DNA of 64,000 nt from Candidatus Buchananbacteria bacterium (GCA_041665065.1 JBAYJM010000003.1:5183-69182); one strand, 5' to 3'; positions 12,693 to 59,901 are shown, counted from the stretch's first letter. The notes: generated by a model from the sequence alone, not told the origin. A program made the numbers and translations.

Positions 12693-12927
12693 AAAGATTT
12701 ATTTTTGTTTTATTTTATTATAACATAAACCCAGTCTATCAAATAGAAAAAAGGCCTTGACATTTCGACCAAAATTGGTTAAAATAATTTTATATGGGAT
12801 TGTTGCAGCATTTCCAATTTAAATAAATAAAGAACAAAAGATTCCCACGCATTTTCGCCAGAGCGAATTTCGAGCCTGCCTGTCCGGTAGGCAGGGATGA
12901 CATATAAGGGAAATAACTAATAATAAT

Positions 12928-13200: not shown

Positions 13201-13246
13201 AGTTCTTAAAAATTCACTCCGATTTCGGAGTGAATTTTTATTTACG

Positions 13247-28027: not shown

Positions 28028-29281
28028 ATGAAAAAAACATATCTTATCATCGCAGGGATAATGCTTGCCACCGCCGCCGTATTGTCCTCTTATTTTATAG
28101 CTCCGGCAAATTCAACTTCAAATAATAAAATTACTGAGGATAAAAATTTACAAAGTTTATTTGTAGACCAAACGTCAGATGCATCTTACTTTTTGGAGCC
28201 CCAGAGCTATAGCCAAATTCCAGACAGTACAGTGACTATTCATCCAGCGACCGGAGGCAGTACCGCAACTAAAATTGCCATACTTATTCCTCAAACCCAT
28301 CGCTATCCCGGAAGCAATATATCTGACTCAGTAAATGATTCAGCGGTCATTGCGCAAGGACAAATATATAAAATCATATCCTATCTCGAAAAAGCGGGGG
28401 CCAATACAGTAATGGCGGAAGGAGACCTAGAAGGAAAAATACCCGATGATAAGATTAAAAATCTTTCACAAAAAATTACATTGAAAGAAGAACTTAAAGC
28501 TGAAGTTCAAAAAATTAAAGGATCAGACCAAGGTGAAATCACGCCTCAATTTTATACAGCCGTGGAAAATCTTATTTCATCAATTGATAGAGAAATACTT
28601 CTTGCCGGTGCGCCGTATAAGTTAAAGGCGGAAGGATATAATATAAATCTTTACGGCACAGAAGATCAGAAACTCCTAGATAACTCAGCTGAAATAGTAA
28701 GAAATACGATTTATCTTCAAGACAGGCTATCTGCATTACAAGGAGTAAATACTGTTGGCTTTAGCTTGAGTAAAACAAGTCTTGTTAATCCTGAAAACAA
28801 TTCAACACTTAAAGATAAATTATTAGAACTGTTACAAAATAGAAGCTTGGTTGCAAATACTTCAGATATAGATAATGAACTGAAGATGAACAAAATTAAT
28901 GCGGCGAATAATTCAGACTTAAACGCCTTGCTTGATCAGGCTCAAAACACCTACAATGAAATTAAGGAATTAGACAAACCCCAAACAACAAACTCTTCCG
29001 CTCCATCAAGACAACAAAATCCATATAATAATATTAATGACGTTGGGACAATACAAAATCTCATAAAGGATAACAACGATAAACTTCAGGAGACCGTTGT
29101 TGATCAAAGAAATCAAAGTACAGCAGAAAAGTTTGTTCAGCTACTTTCTGCTCAAAATAAGGATGTTGCCATAATAACATTTGGATCAGAACACCAAGAA
29201 GGGCTAATCCAAGAATTAAATAAAAGAGGTATATCAGTGGTAGATATACTTCCTAATGAAGTCGGTCAGAAAACACAATAA
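28028..29281 (+). CDS. Secreted hypothetical protein
   Basis: Sec signal peptide (MKKTYLIIAGIMLATAAVLSS). 417 aa, Asn/Gln/Ser-rich, with no recognisable catalytic motif. Divergent from the ECF sigma gene. Confidence 0.5.
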   Translation: MKKTYLIIAGIMLATAAVLSSYFIAPANSTSNNKITEDKNLQSLFVDQTSDASYFLEPQSYSQIPDSTVTIHPATGGSTATKIAILIPQTHRYPGSNISDSVNDSAVIAQGQIYKIISYLEKAGANTVMAEGDLEGKIPDDKIKNLSQKITLKEELKAEVQKIKGSDQGEITPQFYTAVENLISSIDREILLAGAPYKLKAEGYNINLYGTEDQKLLDNSAEIVRNTIYLQDRLSALQGVNTVGFSLSKTSLVNPENNSTLKDKLLELLQNRSLVANTSDIDNELKMNKINAANNSDLNALLDQAQNTYNEIKELDKPQTTNSSAPSRQQNPYNNINDVGTIQNLIKDNNDKLQETVVDQRNQSTAEKFVQLLSAQNKDVAIITFGSEHQEGLIQELNKRGISVVDILPNEVGQKTQ

Positions 29282-29301
29282 ATGTGATCTCAACCAAACA
29301 T

Positions 29302-29334
29302 AAAACAGTCCGCTACGACGGACTGTTTTATTTT
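29302..29334. terminator. Bidirectional intrinsic terminator between convergent genes
   Basis: Sequence aaaACAGTCCGctacgaCGGACTGTtttatttt. Confidence 0.85.
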
Positions 29335-29369
29335 AAGAGATAAACAAGCATGACTTTTGGATATTTTGA

Positions 29370-29981
29370 TTACATTCCTCCACCAAATAACTTATCTAAA
29401 ATAATCAAGTTTCCAAGATTGCCAGTACCCAATCCACTGTTGCCTAAAAGATTACTATTTCCGCCAAATACAGAATTAAGAATTAATAAATTGCCCAGTG
29501 AATTATTGCCAGTTGTTCCAGTGGTTCCAGTACCAAATAGATTTAACCCGGTATCACCGCCAAAGAGCTCATTTAACAAGAACAAATTGCCCAAGTTATT
29601 GCTGCCGTCAGTACTACCTAAAATTCCCGTCCCTAATGTATTATTACCGCCGAAAATAGAATCCAGGATTAATAGATTGCCCAAGGAGCTGTTACCAAGT
29701 ATACTTCCATTGCTAGCAGTGCTTGCCGTAGTGGCTGCGACTGTTCTAACGACGGTATTTGCCGCCTGAGTGGATCTTGGCTTACCAAAAAGATCATCGC
29801 TACCAGAAAACTTAATAACATCGGTATACTGGGATATTTTGCTTGGTCCGGATATTTTTTCATATCCAATTGGTGCAGTCGGTGTTTGTGCCATGGCAGT
29901 CATTGGAGAAATCACACCAACAACCCCCAAAGCCACTACCATGGTGACGGTAGCCAAAGCCAACTTTTTAAATAAAGACAT
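29370..29981 (-). CDS. Secreted Gly/Asn-rich repeat protein
   Basis: Clear Sec signal peptide with an AMA cleavage site. Four or more degenerate repeats of about 22 aa, each containing LGNL(L/F)(I/L)L..(I/L/V)FGG. The plus-strand ORF 29350..29769 is the proline-rich antisense frame of this gene. Confidence 0.55.
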   Translation of the reverse strand: MSLFKKLALATVTMVVALGVVGVISPMTAMAQTPTAPIGYEKISGPSKISQYTDVIKFSGSDDLFGKPRSTQAANTVVRTVAATTASTASNGSILGNSSLGNLLILDSIFGGNNTLGTGILGSTDGSNNLGNLFLLNELFGGDTGLNLFGTGTTGTTGNNSLGNLLILNSVFGGNSNLLGNSGLGTGNLGNLIILDKLFGGGM

Positions 29982-30179: not shown

Positions 30180-30758
30180 CTATTTACCAATAAGTACGGC
30201 GTCAATGCCCTGTATCACTCCATTAGATGCTATGAGATCTGGGGCTATAATTTTAGCCCCATTTATAGTAATGACATTATCAGTACCTCCTATCGAAACC
30301 GTCGTATTATTTATACTCTCGAATGAATCACCAGCCCGTAGACTATCCTTTAGACGGGCTCCACTTACAATGTGGTTTTGCAAAACCTTAACTAAAAACT
30401 GCCTATCATTTACTAGCCTCTGTGCGGTTTTTTGATCAATTTTTCCAAACGCCTTATCGGTTGGCATAAAGATGGTATATGGTCCACCCACATTGAATGA
30501 CCCGTCTAGCCCAGACTGCAACATAGCAACAAAAAAAGTATTAAAATTACCCGTCGCACGTGCCAAAGACACAATATCCATGAGCTCGATATTATTGTTC
30601 TGGCTTGTAGATGATGTGGCGTCGATTTGCAAATTGTTATTAGTTGTTTGAGACAATTGTTTAAAATTATTTTCTTTTTGGCCATTTGGATAAAAAATAC
30701 CCAAACTGACAACCACAACAACTATAATTATTCCCAAAATTAAAATCATCGCCCTCAT
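30180..30758 (-). CDS. Membrane-anchored fasciclin (FAS1) domain protein
   Basis: N-terminal TM. FAS1-like motifs TIFMPTDKAF and NHIVSG. Confidence 0.65.
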   Translation of the reverse strand: MRAMILILGIIIVVVVVSLGIFYPNGQKENNFKQLSQTTNNNLQIDATSSTSQNNNIELMDIVSLARATGNFNTFFVAMLQSGLDGSFNVGGPYTIFMPTDKAFGKIDQKTAQRLVNDRQFLVKVLQNHIVSGARLKDSLRAGDSFESINNTTVSIGGTDNVITINGAKIIAPDLIASNGVIQGIDAVLIGK

Positions 30759-30845
30759 AATGATTTATTTTATTTATAACTTTCAATAACATAGCTAAAA
30801 CAAGTTAAAACCCTATTAAAGATGAAGTGGACAATTTTTTTACCC

Positions 30846-30960
30846 AAACAAAAAGGCACTCGCCTACTCGTTTGTGCCCCCTTGCACGACGCCAAAGCGT
30901 CGCCCATTTCACCTCACCCCCTTGGCAGAACCAGCCCTGCCAATGTCAGATATTGGTATT
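30846..30960 (-). ncRNA. GC-rich structured RNA element ending in an intrinsic terminator. It could be a riboswitch or attenuator leader of the fasciclin gene, or a small RNA.
   Basis: About 60% GC island inside a roughly 30% GC intergenic region. Minus-strand hairpins GGCAGggcugguuCUGCC and GGGCGACGCuuugGCGUCG. Duplicated CAAGGGGG boxes. Terminator GGCACaaacgaguaggcgaGUGCC followed by UUUUUGUUU. No coding potential. Confidence 0.45.
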
Positions 30961-31045
30961 ACATTTACGTCGTTTTTTAATCAAAATCTACTAAAAGAAC
31001 TAGTTAAAGCTATTATATACTAATAATCATTAAAGCATCATTAAT

Positions 31046-31420
31046 TTAAACCGAGGTGGCGTTAATTAATACGCTTATAACAAAGGAAACAATTGCATAA
31101 GATGATAAAACAAGTATTAACCCAATAATCGCATTAAATAAAGCACTTCTGGCCTTTTTTATTTTTTCTTCATCTCCACCTGCGACCATCCACCTAAAAC
31201 CGCTTAAAATTATCAGCAATACGGCAATTAATACGATCAAACTTAGAAATATCCTAACCAGTCTTGATATGAAAGTTATCAAATCAACATTTGGCAATCC
31301 AAAAGTCCCCGCTTCTAGTAAGCCAACATTTACCGCAGACTGCCCAAACGTTAATGAAGGACAGAAAAAAAGTAAAATTAAAATACTAACTACAATATGG
31401 TTGAAATAATTTTTTTTCAT
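31046..31420 (-). CDS. Small secreted two-TM protein with VirB2/TrbC-pilin-like architecture (tentative)
   Basis: Signal peptide MKKNYFNHIVVSILILLFFCPSLTFG followed by two hydrophobic helices about 30 aa apart. The start is set at the internal Met. An alternative start at 31474 would add 18 aa. Confidence 0.4.
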   Translation of the reverse strand: MKKNYFNHIVVSILILLFFCPSLTFGQSAVNVGLLEAGTFGLPNVDLITFISRLVRIFLSLIVLIAVLLIILSGFRWMVAGGDEEKIKKARSALFNAIIGLILVLSSYAIVSFVISVLINATSV

Positions 31421-38403: not shown

Positions 38404-38544
38404 TAGACAGCCAATTAACCTAAATTGGCGCAAAACGATGAATAATCAAAATGGATTTAGACGAATAAAAGTTACCCAAATTTTGTGCCTACGAGTTGTC
38501 TAAAAAATTAATAAATTATTTTTTTACCTTATCCCAACACCAAC

Positions 38545-38577
38545 AAAAAACCGCTAAAATATTTTGGCGGTTTTTTG
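38545..38577. terminator. Bidirectional intrinsic terminator downstream of the VOC gene
   Basis: Sequence aaaaaACCGCtaaaatattttGGCGGTtttttt. Confidence 0.75.
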
Positions 38578-38588
38578 TTGGTGTTAAA

Positions 38589-38981
38589 TTACTGCGGTTG
38601 CCAATTTGTCGGCTGCATTATTCCAAACATATTACCCTCAGTATCAGCCGCTCTAATAAACCAGCCAATATCAGGTATTTCCATTTTTTCTCCATTAATC
38701 TTGCCTCCATTTTTCTTTACATTTTCAATCGCCTCATCAATATTTTCGACTGTCATTGTACAATCAAAAGTATTTAAGGGCTTGTCTTTGGGACGCTGAT
38801 ACATCCCACCATTGATTCCGGGGGTTCCTTTCTCACCAGTAGTAAGTCCCCAATAATCCATTCCGCCTTGATCTTTTGTCATCATCTGTTCGATTTTCCA
38901 GCCGAAAGTATTTTCATAAAAAGATTTCGCCCGATTAATATCATCTGCCTGGACTTCAAAATGCATAATACGATTTGGCAT
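38589..38981 (-). CDS. VOC-family (glyoxalase/bleomycin-resistance fold) protein
   Basis: 130 aa. MHFEVQADDINRAKSFYENTFGWKIE matches the VOC N-terminal beta-alpha-beta-beta-beta module. Confidence 0.8.
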   Translation of the reverse strand: MPNRIMHFEVQADDINRAKSFYENTFGWKIEQMMTKDQGGMDYWGLTTGEKGTPGINGGMYQRPKDKPLNTFDCTMTVENIDEAIENVKKNGGKINGEKMEIPDIGWFIRAADTEGNMFGIMQPTNWQPQ

Positions 38982-58732: not shown

Positions 58733-58761
58733 TTGACATTTTATCAAAAGTATGCTATAAT
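58733..58761 (+). promoter_or_regulatory. Consensus sigma-70 promoter (TTGACA, 17 nt spacer, TATAAT) driving the GC-rich island gene
   Basis: Both hexamers match consensus exactly. About 110 nt upstream of the ATG. The leader holds three short hairpins: ATCGCTtaagtgAGCGAT, CACATtgaaatATGTG and GGCAAtgtTTGCC. Confidence 0.6.
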
Positions 58762-58878
58762 TATATATCGCTTAAGTGAGCGATGAGGCACATTGAAATA
58801 TGTGGAAAATAGCCCTAAGATGGGAAAGGCAATGTTTGCCTCTTCTTTCTGATGGCTTGGGCAGTTTAAGGGGGTATT

Positions 58879-59901
58879 ATGAGAAACTTGGCAATTGCAA
58901 TAATGATATTGTTTTCCGGCGCTGTGTCTGCTGACAGTCTCATTCCCGAGATCAAGCTTGGCACTGATGCCACACTGAAAATCTCCGGGTGGGGGCAGAT
59001 CGTTGCCGCCGAGGAAATGTACGGCGGCCTCGAGACTGACCTGGCCGGGCTTCGCATCAACGCCGATCTGAACTGGAATGACTGGGAGTTTTTTACCCAA
59101 GTCAATCTCACCACCGACGGCGAGGAGATCGACTCGGACTGGCTATACCAGGCCTGGGTCGGACACAACATCAGTGAGCACTGGAAGTTGCGCGTCGGAC
59201 GAATTTTCGTGTCCGGTGGCAATATCACTCCGTGCGCATATGATATACGCACAGTGAAGTACCCGGCAGGGATAACTTTCTGCCCGTATGCTACAGGTGC
59301 TCAGTTTGAGGGTCTACTACTCAAAGGGTTAACCTTGATCACGGAAGTGACAGGTAAATCTGGAGTCGCCTTCAACGCCGATGACACCTTCGAGCGAGCC
59401 GAGTTTGGGCTCATGCTTAAGCAGGAATTCGGAGAGAGCGGGAAGCCGGGATATGGATATTTGGCCGGCTACGGTCAGCTCTGCAAGGACTTTCAGCGCT
59501 ACGGCGCCGAGGGTTTCTGGCAACCGATCTCGCGACTCACTCTGATGGGCGCACTCTGCTATACGAAATATGAGTACGACCAGACGAGTGACGAAATCGG
59601 CGGCTACGCCTTAGTCGCCTACCGACTCCTACCTTGGTTCGAACTTCACGGCCAGATCGACCGATTTGAATGCCTGGAGAAAACCTGGGGGGACGTGGAA
59701 TCTTCCAAGGACGAGACCGGCAAGGTCAACATCGACTATGTCGAATATTGCTCGGATGAAACCGAGCTGACGACGTTAACCATCGGCGCGAAGCTAATGG
59801 AACCCACCGATGCTTTCTCGGTCACCGTCGATTGGGAGAAACCCATCGGTGATGATTCGGAGGAGGATCGGTTCCTCCTGAAGGCCCAGGTCAAGTTCTA
59901 A
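58879..59901 (+). CDS. Secreted beta-rich protein resembling an outer-membrane porin or beta-barrel (C-terminal ...AQVKF). It is encoded in a roughly 52% GC island.
   Basis: Signal peptide MRNLAIAIMILFSGAVSADS. Amphipathic beta-strand pattern throughout. Aromatic C-terminus ending KF. Shine-Dalgarno AAGGGGG. Codon usage is GC3-rich, unlike the host. It has its own terminator. Confidence 0.55.
   Translation: MRNLAIAIMILFSGAVSADSLIPEIKLGTDATLKISGWGQIVAAEEMYGGLETDLAGLRINADLNWNDWEFFTQVNLTTDGEEIDSDWLYQAWVGHNISEHWKLRVGRIFVSGGNITPCAYDIRTVKYPAGITFCPYATGAQFEGLLLKGLTLITEVTGKSGVAFNADDTFERAEFGLMLKQEFGESGKPGYGYLAGYGQLCKDFQRYGAEGFWQPISRLTLMGALCYTKYEYDQTSDEIGGYALVAYRLLPWFELHGQIDRFECLEKTWGDVESSKDETGKVNIDYVEYCSDETELTTLTIGAKLMEPTDAFSVTVDWEKPIGDDSEEDRFLLKAQVKF

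Follow-up and report, generated by a model that had tools for sequence, protein, structure and literature searches.

In Pseudomonas aeruginosa and other bacteria, a Rho-independent terminator lying directly after the major pilin gene attenuates the downstream accessory gene and sets the stoichiometry of the two (PMC11841053). The type IV pilin cassettes covered in that work are those of P. aeruginosa, Dichelobacter nodosus (Bacteroides nodosus in the paper), Eikenella and Xanthomonas (PMC11841053). We analysed a locus on the minus strand of a 64,000-nucleotide stretch of DNA from a Candidatus Buchananbacteria MAG (GCA_041665065.1 JBAYJM010000003.1:5183-69182), which we call the window. This locus is like the type IV pilin cassettes in that a predicted hairpin with a U tract lies between a pilin gene and a co-oriented neighbour that is kept, in that the hairpin appears to be constitutive, and in that a role in stoichiometry can be proposed for it. 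It is unlike them in its pilin, which is a VirB2-like T4SS pilin (PF18895), and in the partner gene, which encodes a fasciclin-domain protein instead of a TfpY-like accessory protein. The window also has two extra GC-rich hairpins before the terminator, and read-through is putative here.

Stem-loops at 3' ends or between cistrons stabilise the major-subunit segment of polycistronic fimbrial or photosynthesis operons, as in papBA and puf. The window shares with these operons the presence of several stable hairpins directly after the gene for an abundant structural subunit, an analogy of mechanism only. Terminator-type riboswitches are comparable to the extent that in the window, too, a terminator closes a structured, GC-rich RNA in front of a co-oriented gene, but the window element is without a conserved aptamer, an antiterminator, an upstream promoter or an Rfam family. 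Also comparable are the elements that trail pilin genes in other lineages of the Candidate Phyla Radiation (CPR), for example family A, described below; they occupy the same place, have matching z scores and consist of one or two very stable hairpins. Unlike the window element, these other elements are mostly without a U tract and are followed by a pilin paralogue, and they have no sequence or covariance-model similarity to it. The window element is most likely of an ordinary kind, a pilin-gene 3' UTR with a terminator, in a lineage-specific form.

The pilin-fasciclin intergenic region and its predicted fold

The intergenic region at 30759-31045 (287 nt) separates two minus-strand genes, one for the pilin and one for the fasciclin-domain protein (Table 1). 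The mechanical ORF of the pilin gene reaches 31474 and its TAA stop occupies 31046-31048; the product is 100% identical to a 124-aa NCBI protein, which tblastn placed at 31420-31049. The fasciclin protein and a C39 peptidase are likewise 100% identical to Candidatus Buchananbacteria NCBI proteins, and the window's contig was found too in one ENA and one Logan assembly. Neighbours annotated in about 27-38 kb of the window include an RND pump, a HlyD-like protein, a TetR regulator and a sigma factor. Given the T4SS pilin, we also considered an oriT or conjugation site; neither a relaxase nor VirB4 is found among these annotated neighbours.

The GC content of the window is 0.36, and that of the intergenic region outside the block is 0.22. 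The block begins 86 nt past the pilin stop codon, on the pilin strand, and ends about 200 nt past it. The initial annotation had described a block of about 60% GC with no coding potential. The first figure holds for the core of the block (0.59-0.64), but the exact interval 30846-30960 has a GC content of 0.54. The second claim is not literally true, since a 45-aa minus-strand ORF (30770-30907) starts inside the block; the small ORFs overlapping the block gave no Pfam match.

Table 1. Positions of the features of the pilin-fasciclin locus, counted from the first nucleotide of the window, and of the family A elements, counted within their own loci
Feature	Positions	Strand	Details
VirB2-like T4SS pilin gene	31046-31420	minus	124 aa from ATG at 31420; Pfam PF18895 T4SS_pilin, E=2.7e-11
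AT-rich spacer, pilin stop to first hairpin	30944-31045	minus	From the sequence; no promoter-like site
Hairpin H1 (predicted)	30922-30943	minus	UUGGCAG (30943-30937), 8-nt loop GGCUGGUU, CUGCCAA (30928-30922); MFE and centroid structures
G-rich single-stranded linker (predicted)	30905-30923	minus	AAGGGGGUGAGGUGAAAUG; unpaired in the MFE structure
Hairpin H2 (predicted)	30883-30906	minus	(UG)GGCGACGC, loop UUUG, GCGUCG(U)G(CA); MFE pairs 30906-30883
Terminator hairpin T and U tract (predicted)	30846-30885	minus	From the folds; 16-mer conserved in L005
Membrane-anchored fasciclin-domain protein gene	30180-30758	minus	Pfam PF02469, E=2.8e-30; ATG 87 nt past the U tract
Family A members (n=7)	L027:1900-1985, L048:1911-1996, L033:1900-1990, L039:1906-1990, L068:1895-1985, L069:1918-2000, L090:625-725		

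Stability was scanned over all intergenic regions of the window, in 110-nt steps and on both strands. The 110-nt fold of the block (-44 kcal/mol, z about -4) was the most stable among all of these regions and outranked even those holding tRNAs. Folded over 136 nt, the minus strand gave an MFE of -48.2 kcal/mol (z=-4.17), which 0 of 200 shuffles equalled. The plus strand gave -33.2 kcal/mol. The minus-strand fold is the better one because several of its pairs are G-U, and its advantage of 15 kcal/mol argues that the RNA is to be read in the direction of the flanking genes, as the initial annotation had read it. The three predicted hairpins (H1, H2 and T) are independent and stand in series with no multi-helix junction, and every suboptimal fold within 3 kcal/mol retains all three. 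With the 3' arm of T omitted, as it would be during transcription, the 5' arm stays essentially unpaired; the 5' arm is thus essentially without another partner, and therefore no antiterminator is predicted. By these folding models, the block is a real, unusually stable three-hairpin RNA structure, exceptional for this genome. Two AT-rich intergenic windows elsewhere, 38490-38599 (plus strand) and 29262-29371 (minus strand), have z scores of -6.08 and -5.49, the latter lying between the convergent genes 28028-29281 and 29370-29981; both are probably long terminator hairpins.

The motifs described at first for the two minus-strand stem-loops are all present. H2 is built around a core of GGGCGACGC (30905-30897), the UUUG loop and GCGUCG (30892-30887), and in the linker between H1 and H2 lie the run of G that closes the first CAAGGGGG box, a Shine-Dalgarno-like stretch and the start codon (AUG) of the 45-aa ORF. 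The arms of T are GCAAGGGGGCAC (30885-30874) on the 5' side, with the second CAAGGGGG box inside it, and GUGCCUUUUUGU (30859-30848) on the 3' side. Within these arms, GGCAC (30878-30874) pairs with GUGCC (30859-30855), a core that can be extended to 12 pairs, and the U tract UUUUUGUUU (30854-30846) follows directly after the stem. The terminator had been given as GGCAC-13nt-GUGCC about 90 nt before the fasciclin gene; the arms and the U tract are indeed there, but the loop is of 14 nt and the gap to the ATG at 30758 is of 87 nt. A second, nearly isoenergetic register of T places an apical AGGC-GAGU-GCCU (4-bp stem, GAGU tetraloop) atop AAACGAG/UUUUGUUU, because of a 7-nt insertion in the window's loop.

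The two copies of CAAGGGGG (30924-30917 and 30884-30877) had been proposed as a duplicated box for alternative pairings. Both copies exist, but there is a simpler explanation for them: box 1 consists of the H1 3' arm plus a run of G, and box 2 is predicted to be the 5' arm of the extended T stem, pairing with the U tract. The duplication of this 8-mer alone is not significant, as at least two copies were present in 35 of 100 window shuffles.

Comparison with a relative and with known RNA families

We searched for relatives using the fasciclin protein, the pilin and the C39 peptidase as queries, and added one scan each of genome and metagenome contigs. The full pilin-to-fasciclin intergenic region could be read in one relative only, L005, whose pilin is 60% identical, whose region measures 174 nt and which also has the pilin-then-fasciclin gene order. 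The fasciclin protein gave 2 matches, one of which was the window's own protein. Among the pilin homologues, the contigs of L003 and L004 end 99 nt past the pilin gene, and L086 is the truncated L003 contig. The best pilin match in the genome-contig scan had 51% identity, the metagenome-contig scan gave none closer except L086, and the sequences downstream of the pilin matches in both scans included none resembling the window element. Synteny was lacking in the relatives of the C39 peptidase, as it was for P0002 and P0008. With a single relative, comparative power is very low, and covariation across homologous intergenic regions, to which the initial annotation had pointed, has no statistical support from this single syntenic sequence.

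The window and L005 have in common an identical 16-mer, AGGCGAGUGCCUUUUU (30865-30850 in the window), the AUGGGCG motif and the GACG/CGUC stem core of H2, which in L005 takes the form GACG-UAUUAUGGG-CGUC. L005 is predicted to fold into three consecutive hairpins at the same relative positions, AU-richer than those of the window and with a weaker counterpart of H1. Its last hairpin, GGAUAAAAAGGUAC-AAGGCGA-GUGCCUUUUUAUUU, is a 14-pair A-tract/U-tract stem with a 7-nt loop. A simple terminator scan flagged this hairpin and did not flag the window T, because the loop of the latter exceeds 8 nt. As a result of the 7-nt loop insertion, MAFFT mis-registered the 5' arm of T; pairs were counted in a manual register for T only, the H1 and H2 rows not being in homologous register and not being used. 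Twelve T pairs were compared between the window and L005: 6 are identical, 5 differ on one side with pairing kept, 1 shows a compensatory change (C-G to U-A) and 0 are broken. Three of the five one-sided changes turn G-U into A-U, and a fourth turns C-G into U-G. It is because the T pairs are kept in this shared register that we assign box 2 to the 5' arm of the extended stem. Neither G-rich CAAGGGGG box is kept as such in L005, nor is the H1 sequence, and of the linker only AUGGGCG is conserved there. The intergenic region of the window exceeds that of L005 by 113 nt, and the surplus is the GC-rich part. Judged from these two sequences, the window and its one syntenic relative have the predicted terminator core and the three-hairpin layout in common.

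Rfam (release 15) was searched with the whole window at gathering scores and with 401 nt and 131 nt of the locus at E<=10. The whole window returned three tRNAs only. The locus gave no match at gathering thresholds, and none at E<=10 with the 401 nt or the 131 nt beyond the chance-level PyrC_leader (18 bits, outside the block) and RF_site3 (12 bits). This agrees with the initial annotation, which could not match the element to SRP RNA, RNase P or tmRNA, and the same null result at E<=10 extends to 6S RNA and other housekeeping RNAs. The covariance-model search suggested for the candidate riboswitch thus recovered no Rfam family at any threshold, and the structure belongs to no described RNA family. 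By eye, GAGGUGAAAU and GAGUAGG..GUGCC resemble parts of 5S rRNA; this idea was dropped because there was no 5S_rRNA match at E<=10 in the 131 nt, and no helix I pairing was seen on inspection. Further copies of the element were absent from the window, from the plasmid collection and from the phage collection, and for this reason we do not regard the block as a repeat family. A scan of viral contigs for the 16-mer gave 20 matches, all in unrelated coding contexts.

Elsewhere in the window, a GC-rich structured stretch (12793-12927, plus strand) lies between a TTGACA...TAAAAT promoter-like site and the gene for ribosomal protein L27 (12928-13200). It contains the hairpin GCCUGCCUG-UCCGGUA-GGCAGGGAU (MFE -29.5 kcal/mol, z -2.95), had no Rfam match at E<=5, and may be an r-protein leader.

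A probable pilin mRNA 3' UTR and its alternatives

A consensus-only scan found no sigma-70-like promoter between the pilin stop and the block, and the nearest upstream promoter candidate on the minus strand (31575-31547) lies in front of the pilin gene. Because no promoter-like site separates the two, it is more natural to take the block for the 3' end of the pilin transcript than for a 5' leader belonging to the fasciclin gene. Features of an intrinsic terminator are present in that a G+C-rich stem is predicted, followed by a U tract on the transcribed strand, and in that T stands downstream of a same-strand gene, an arrangement maintained in L005. The window T is less canonical than a model terminator, and than its counterpart in L005, with its 14-nt loop or, in the other register, its 4-bp apical stem. 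Plain hairpin-plus-U-tract terminators are used elsewhere in the genome, for example after rpmA (about 13205-13240). At 30757-30786 (minus strand) there is a promoter-like TTGAAA-18-CATTAT whose -10 hexamer shares positions with the annotated fasciclin ATG. Transcription from this site would begin beside the second in-frame fasciclin ATG (30749), which makes a leaderless mRNA for the fasciclin protein possible. Between T and the start of the fasciclin gene, the window (30778-30773) and L005 each have a TATAAA hexamer as well.

With slightly better than even confidence, we read the block as the 3' UTR of the pilin mRNA, in which hairpins would give protection and an intrinsic terminator, perhaps a leaky one, would insulate the fasciclin gene or attenuate it. 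Transcription would start upstream of the pilin gene and pass the stop codon at 31046 and the AT-rich spacer, after which RNA polymerase would yield two very stable GC-rich hairpins, H1 and H2. Most transcripts would then end at the intrinsic (Rho-independent) terminator T, the stem of which may be lengthened by pairing of the G/A-rich box with the U tract. The three hairpins would shield an abundant pilin message from 3'-to-5' decay, and T would insulate the co-oriented fasciclin gene or, if leaky, fix a low fasciclin:pilin ratio. The points that speak for a pilin 3' UTR are the shared strand, the position past the stop codon, the conserved terminator, the constitutive fold, the behaviour of CPR pilin genes as a class and the precedent of the type IV pilin cassettes. 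An attenuator is plausible here if the word is used loosely, for a terminator that separates two co-oriented genes and lets some transcription through. Two extra hairpins at about 60% GC exceed what a terminator alone needs, which hints at an added function; that they act as stabilisers is a guess.

The element might instead give rise to a discrete sRNA of about 100-170 nt, made from its own promoter in the spacer or cut from the pilin 3' UTR and acting in trans through the G-rich linker. Small RNAs that derive from 3' UTRs and reuse the terminator of the mRNA are well known in other bacteria, and the stable, compact fold with its terminator would suit one. A perfect TATAAT at 31017-31012 could serve as a -10 element, but it is without an acceptable -35 and was not reported by the promoter scan. 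L005 has a TTAATA-17-TATATT site with an extended -10 TG just before H1, but transcription from this site would start inside H1, and promoter-like sites in L005 (11, versus 9.0 +/- 3.0 in shuffles) are within chance expectation. The linker, as the candidate seed, is not conserved in L005, and no second copy occurs in the window. We consider such an sRNA unlikely.

That T is a plain terminator and nothing more, with H1 and H2 as neutral, lineage-specific GC-rich palindromes (an insertion remnant, for instance) or as a protein-binding site at the DNA level, seems to us decidedly unlikely. The extra length of the window's region relative to L005, with its GC-rich surplus, would fit an insertion, and whatever sequence conservation H1 and H2 have could reflect no more than shared ancestry at a short distance. 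On the other side, the maintenance of about 60% GC in a genome of 36% GC, with intergenic DNA of about 22% GC, argues for selection, and the G-U pairs make the structure strand-specific. The absence of other copies in the window and in the plasmid and phage collections also speaks against neutral palindromes, as do the L005 hairpins at the same positions.

The initial annotation had proposed a candidate riboswitch, attenuator or sRNA. The structured minus-strand RNA ending in a hairpin and U tract is retained from that proposal, while the layout with an aptamer in front of an expression platform is not. A terminator-type riboswitch, or an attenuator responding to a ligand or factor, would make the block the 5' leader of the fasciclin gene, with H1 and H2 as sensor and T as platform. 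A GC-rich structured block in an AT-rich region, ending in a hairpin and U tract upstream of a co-oriented gene, would agree with this, as would the pilin-fasciclin order kept in L005, and a new, narrowly distributed class would be absent from Rfam anyway. Nevertheless, Rfam gave no match at any threshold, there is no antiterminator or competing helix, T being kept in the suboptimal folds, and the hairpins follow in series without a junction. In the single comparator L005 it is the terminator that is conserved and not the H1 sequence or the G boxes; the sigma-70 consensus scan put no promoter-like site upstream of the block, and the fasciclin gene encodes an adhesion-domain protein with no obvious link to a metabolite. 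We therefore regard a riboswitch as very improbable. Taken alone the element matters little, and it removes a false riboswitch lead.

An SD-like 4-mer of any kind is present within 25 nt of the start in 10 of 63 window genes, and the starts are preceded by A/T-rich sequence; translation initiation in this organism thus appears, on sequence grounds, to proceed largely without SD pairing. The weakest reading, in which initiation at AUG 30907 and translation across H2 and T suppress termination and are followed by reinitiation at the fasciclin gene, is scarcely credible: this AUG is preceded at a plausible spacing by AAGGGGGUGAGGUGA, a 10-nt anti-SD-complementary run, AUGGGCG is conserved in L005, where a 16-codon ORF from the same AUG also spans the terminator, and the 45-aa ORF stops 11 nt before the fasciclin ATG, but an SD is neither needed nor expected since the genome hardly uses SD sequences, the L005 AUG has no SD-like run before it, the conserved 16-mer is read in different frames in the window and in L005, and the 45-aa ORF is without a Pfam match.

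One gene of the window stands apart from this pattern of translation starts. A 340-aa ORF at 58879-59901 (plus strand) is preceded by a strong Shine-Dalgarno-like AAGGGGG, unlike nearly all genes here, and its upstream region (58735-58878) contains a consensus TTGACA-17-TATAAT promoter and a structured leader. Its GC content rises to 0.69 in 80-nt windows, against 0.36 for the genome, and it has a signal peptide, a C-terminal ...KAQVKF as in outer-membrane beta-barrels, and no Pfam match. From its sequence, the ORF looks foreign to this CPR genome.

Structured RNA after pilin genes of CPR bacteria

We collected 80 CPR pilin homologue loci from the genome scan and 10 more from the metagenome scan. 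Over the 130 nt past the stop codon of 54 stand-alone CPR pilin genes, the median z score was -4.15 and 69% of the values were below -3. As a control, 88 other genes from these loci, each followed by at least 80 nt of intergenic sequence, gave a median z of -0.49, with 19% below -3. At least one strong hairpin domain preceded the next ORF in 53 of 55 stand-alone pilin genes; two domains were present in 25, and a U tract in only about 5. Strong structure right after the gene is typical of stand-alone CPR pilin genes, and the window's z of about -4 fits. The trailing sequences fall into many unrelated families, none of which is matched by Rfam. Since most are without a U tract and are then followed by a pilin paralogue, the analogy of the window with the other CPR loci is one of structure after a pilin, not one of homology.

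One of these families, family A (Table 1), is a conserved two-hairpin motif with no Rfam family and no U tract that in several CPR lineages lies directly after a VirB2-like pilin gene and before a second pilin paralogue. In its second hairpin, compensatory changes occur in 10 of the 16 pairs. A covariance model built from it (R1; 7 members, 60-88 bits each) found no match at E<=1 when the window was searched with cmsearch, and membership of the window element in family A was rejected on this result. With nhmmer and blastn, none of the other CPR pilin-trailing sequences matched the window element either. At least three more unrelated families are found in this position, comprising L013/L014/L031/L059/L064/L067, L019/L028/L032/L038/L061 and L041/L051/L084.

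The CPR loci also presented other arrangements. In about 40% of them (L006-L009 and about 35 others), the pilin does not stand alone as a small protein: its domain forms the N-terminus of a far larger ORF, which continues beyond the 1.5-kb flank. In L087, a pilin 51% identical to that of the window and an A-tract/U-tract terminator are followed by about 1 kb (L087:1747-2800) with no plus-strand ORF of at least 50 aa except a 58-aa TTG ORF; a 64-aa minus-strand ORF lies at 2805-2999. The 1-kb stretch contains a long, near-perfect GC-rich hairpin, CCAGAAUCGGGGUCCGGGGUGUCCGCC...GGCGGACCACCCCGGGACUCUUUGG, and had no Rfam match at E<=0.1.

CPR bacteria retain few surface structures, VirB2-like pilins being among them, and these pilins are found in variable arrays (bioRxiv 10.1101/2025.01.22.634366). 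The next gene in the other CPR lineages is usually another pilin paralogue, which fits these VirB2 arrays (bioRxiv 10.1101/2025.01.22.634366). Perhaps the VirB2-like pilin genes of CPR bacteria carry an undescribed class of trailing structured RNA, made up of several families, some of them covarying, that would act in processing, stabilising or attenuation and adjust the dosage of pilin against the next gene. We offer this as a tentative possibility, in which H1-H2-T would be the version of the Buchananbacteria lineage and its extra hairpins and G-rich linker might bind a factor, so that the element would amount to more than a plain terminator. The pattern across the class is more interesting than the window element itself. 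If trailing structures do control pilin dosage, they would provide a simple and testable regulatory layer in organisms that are difficult to grow in culture and have few classical regulators.
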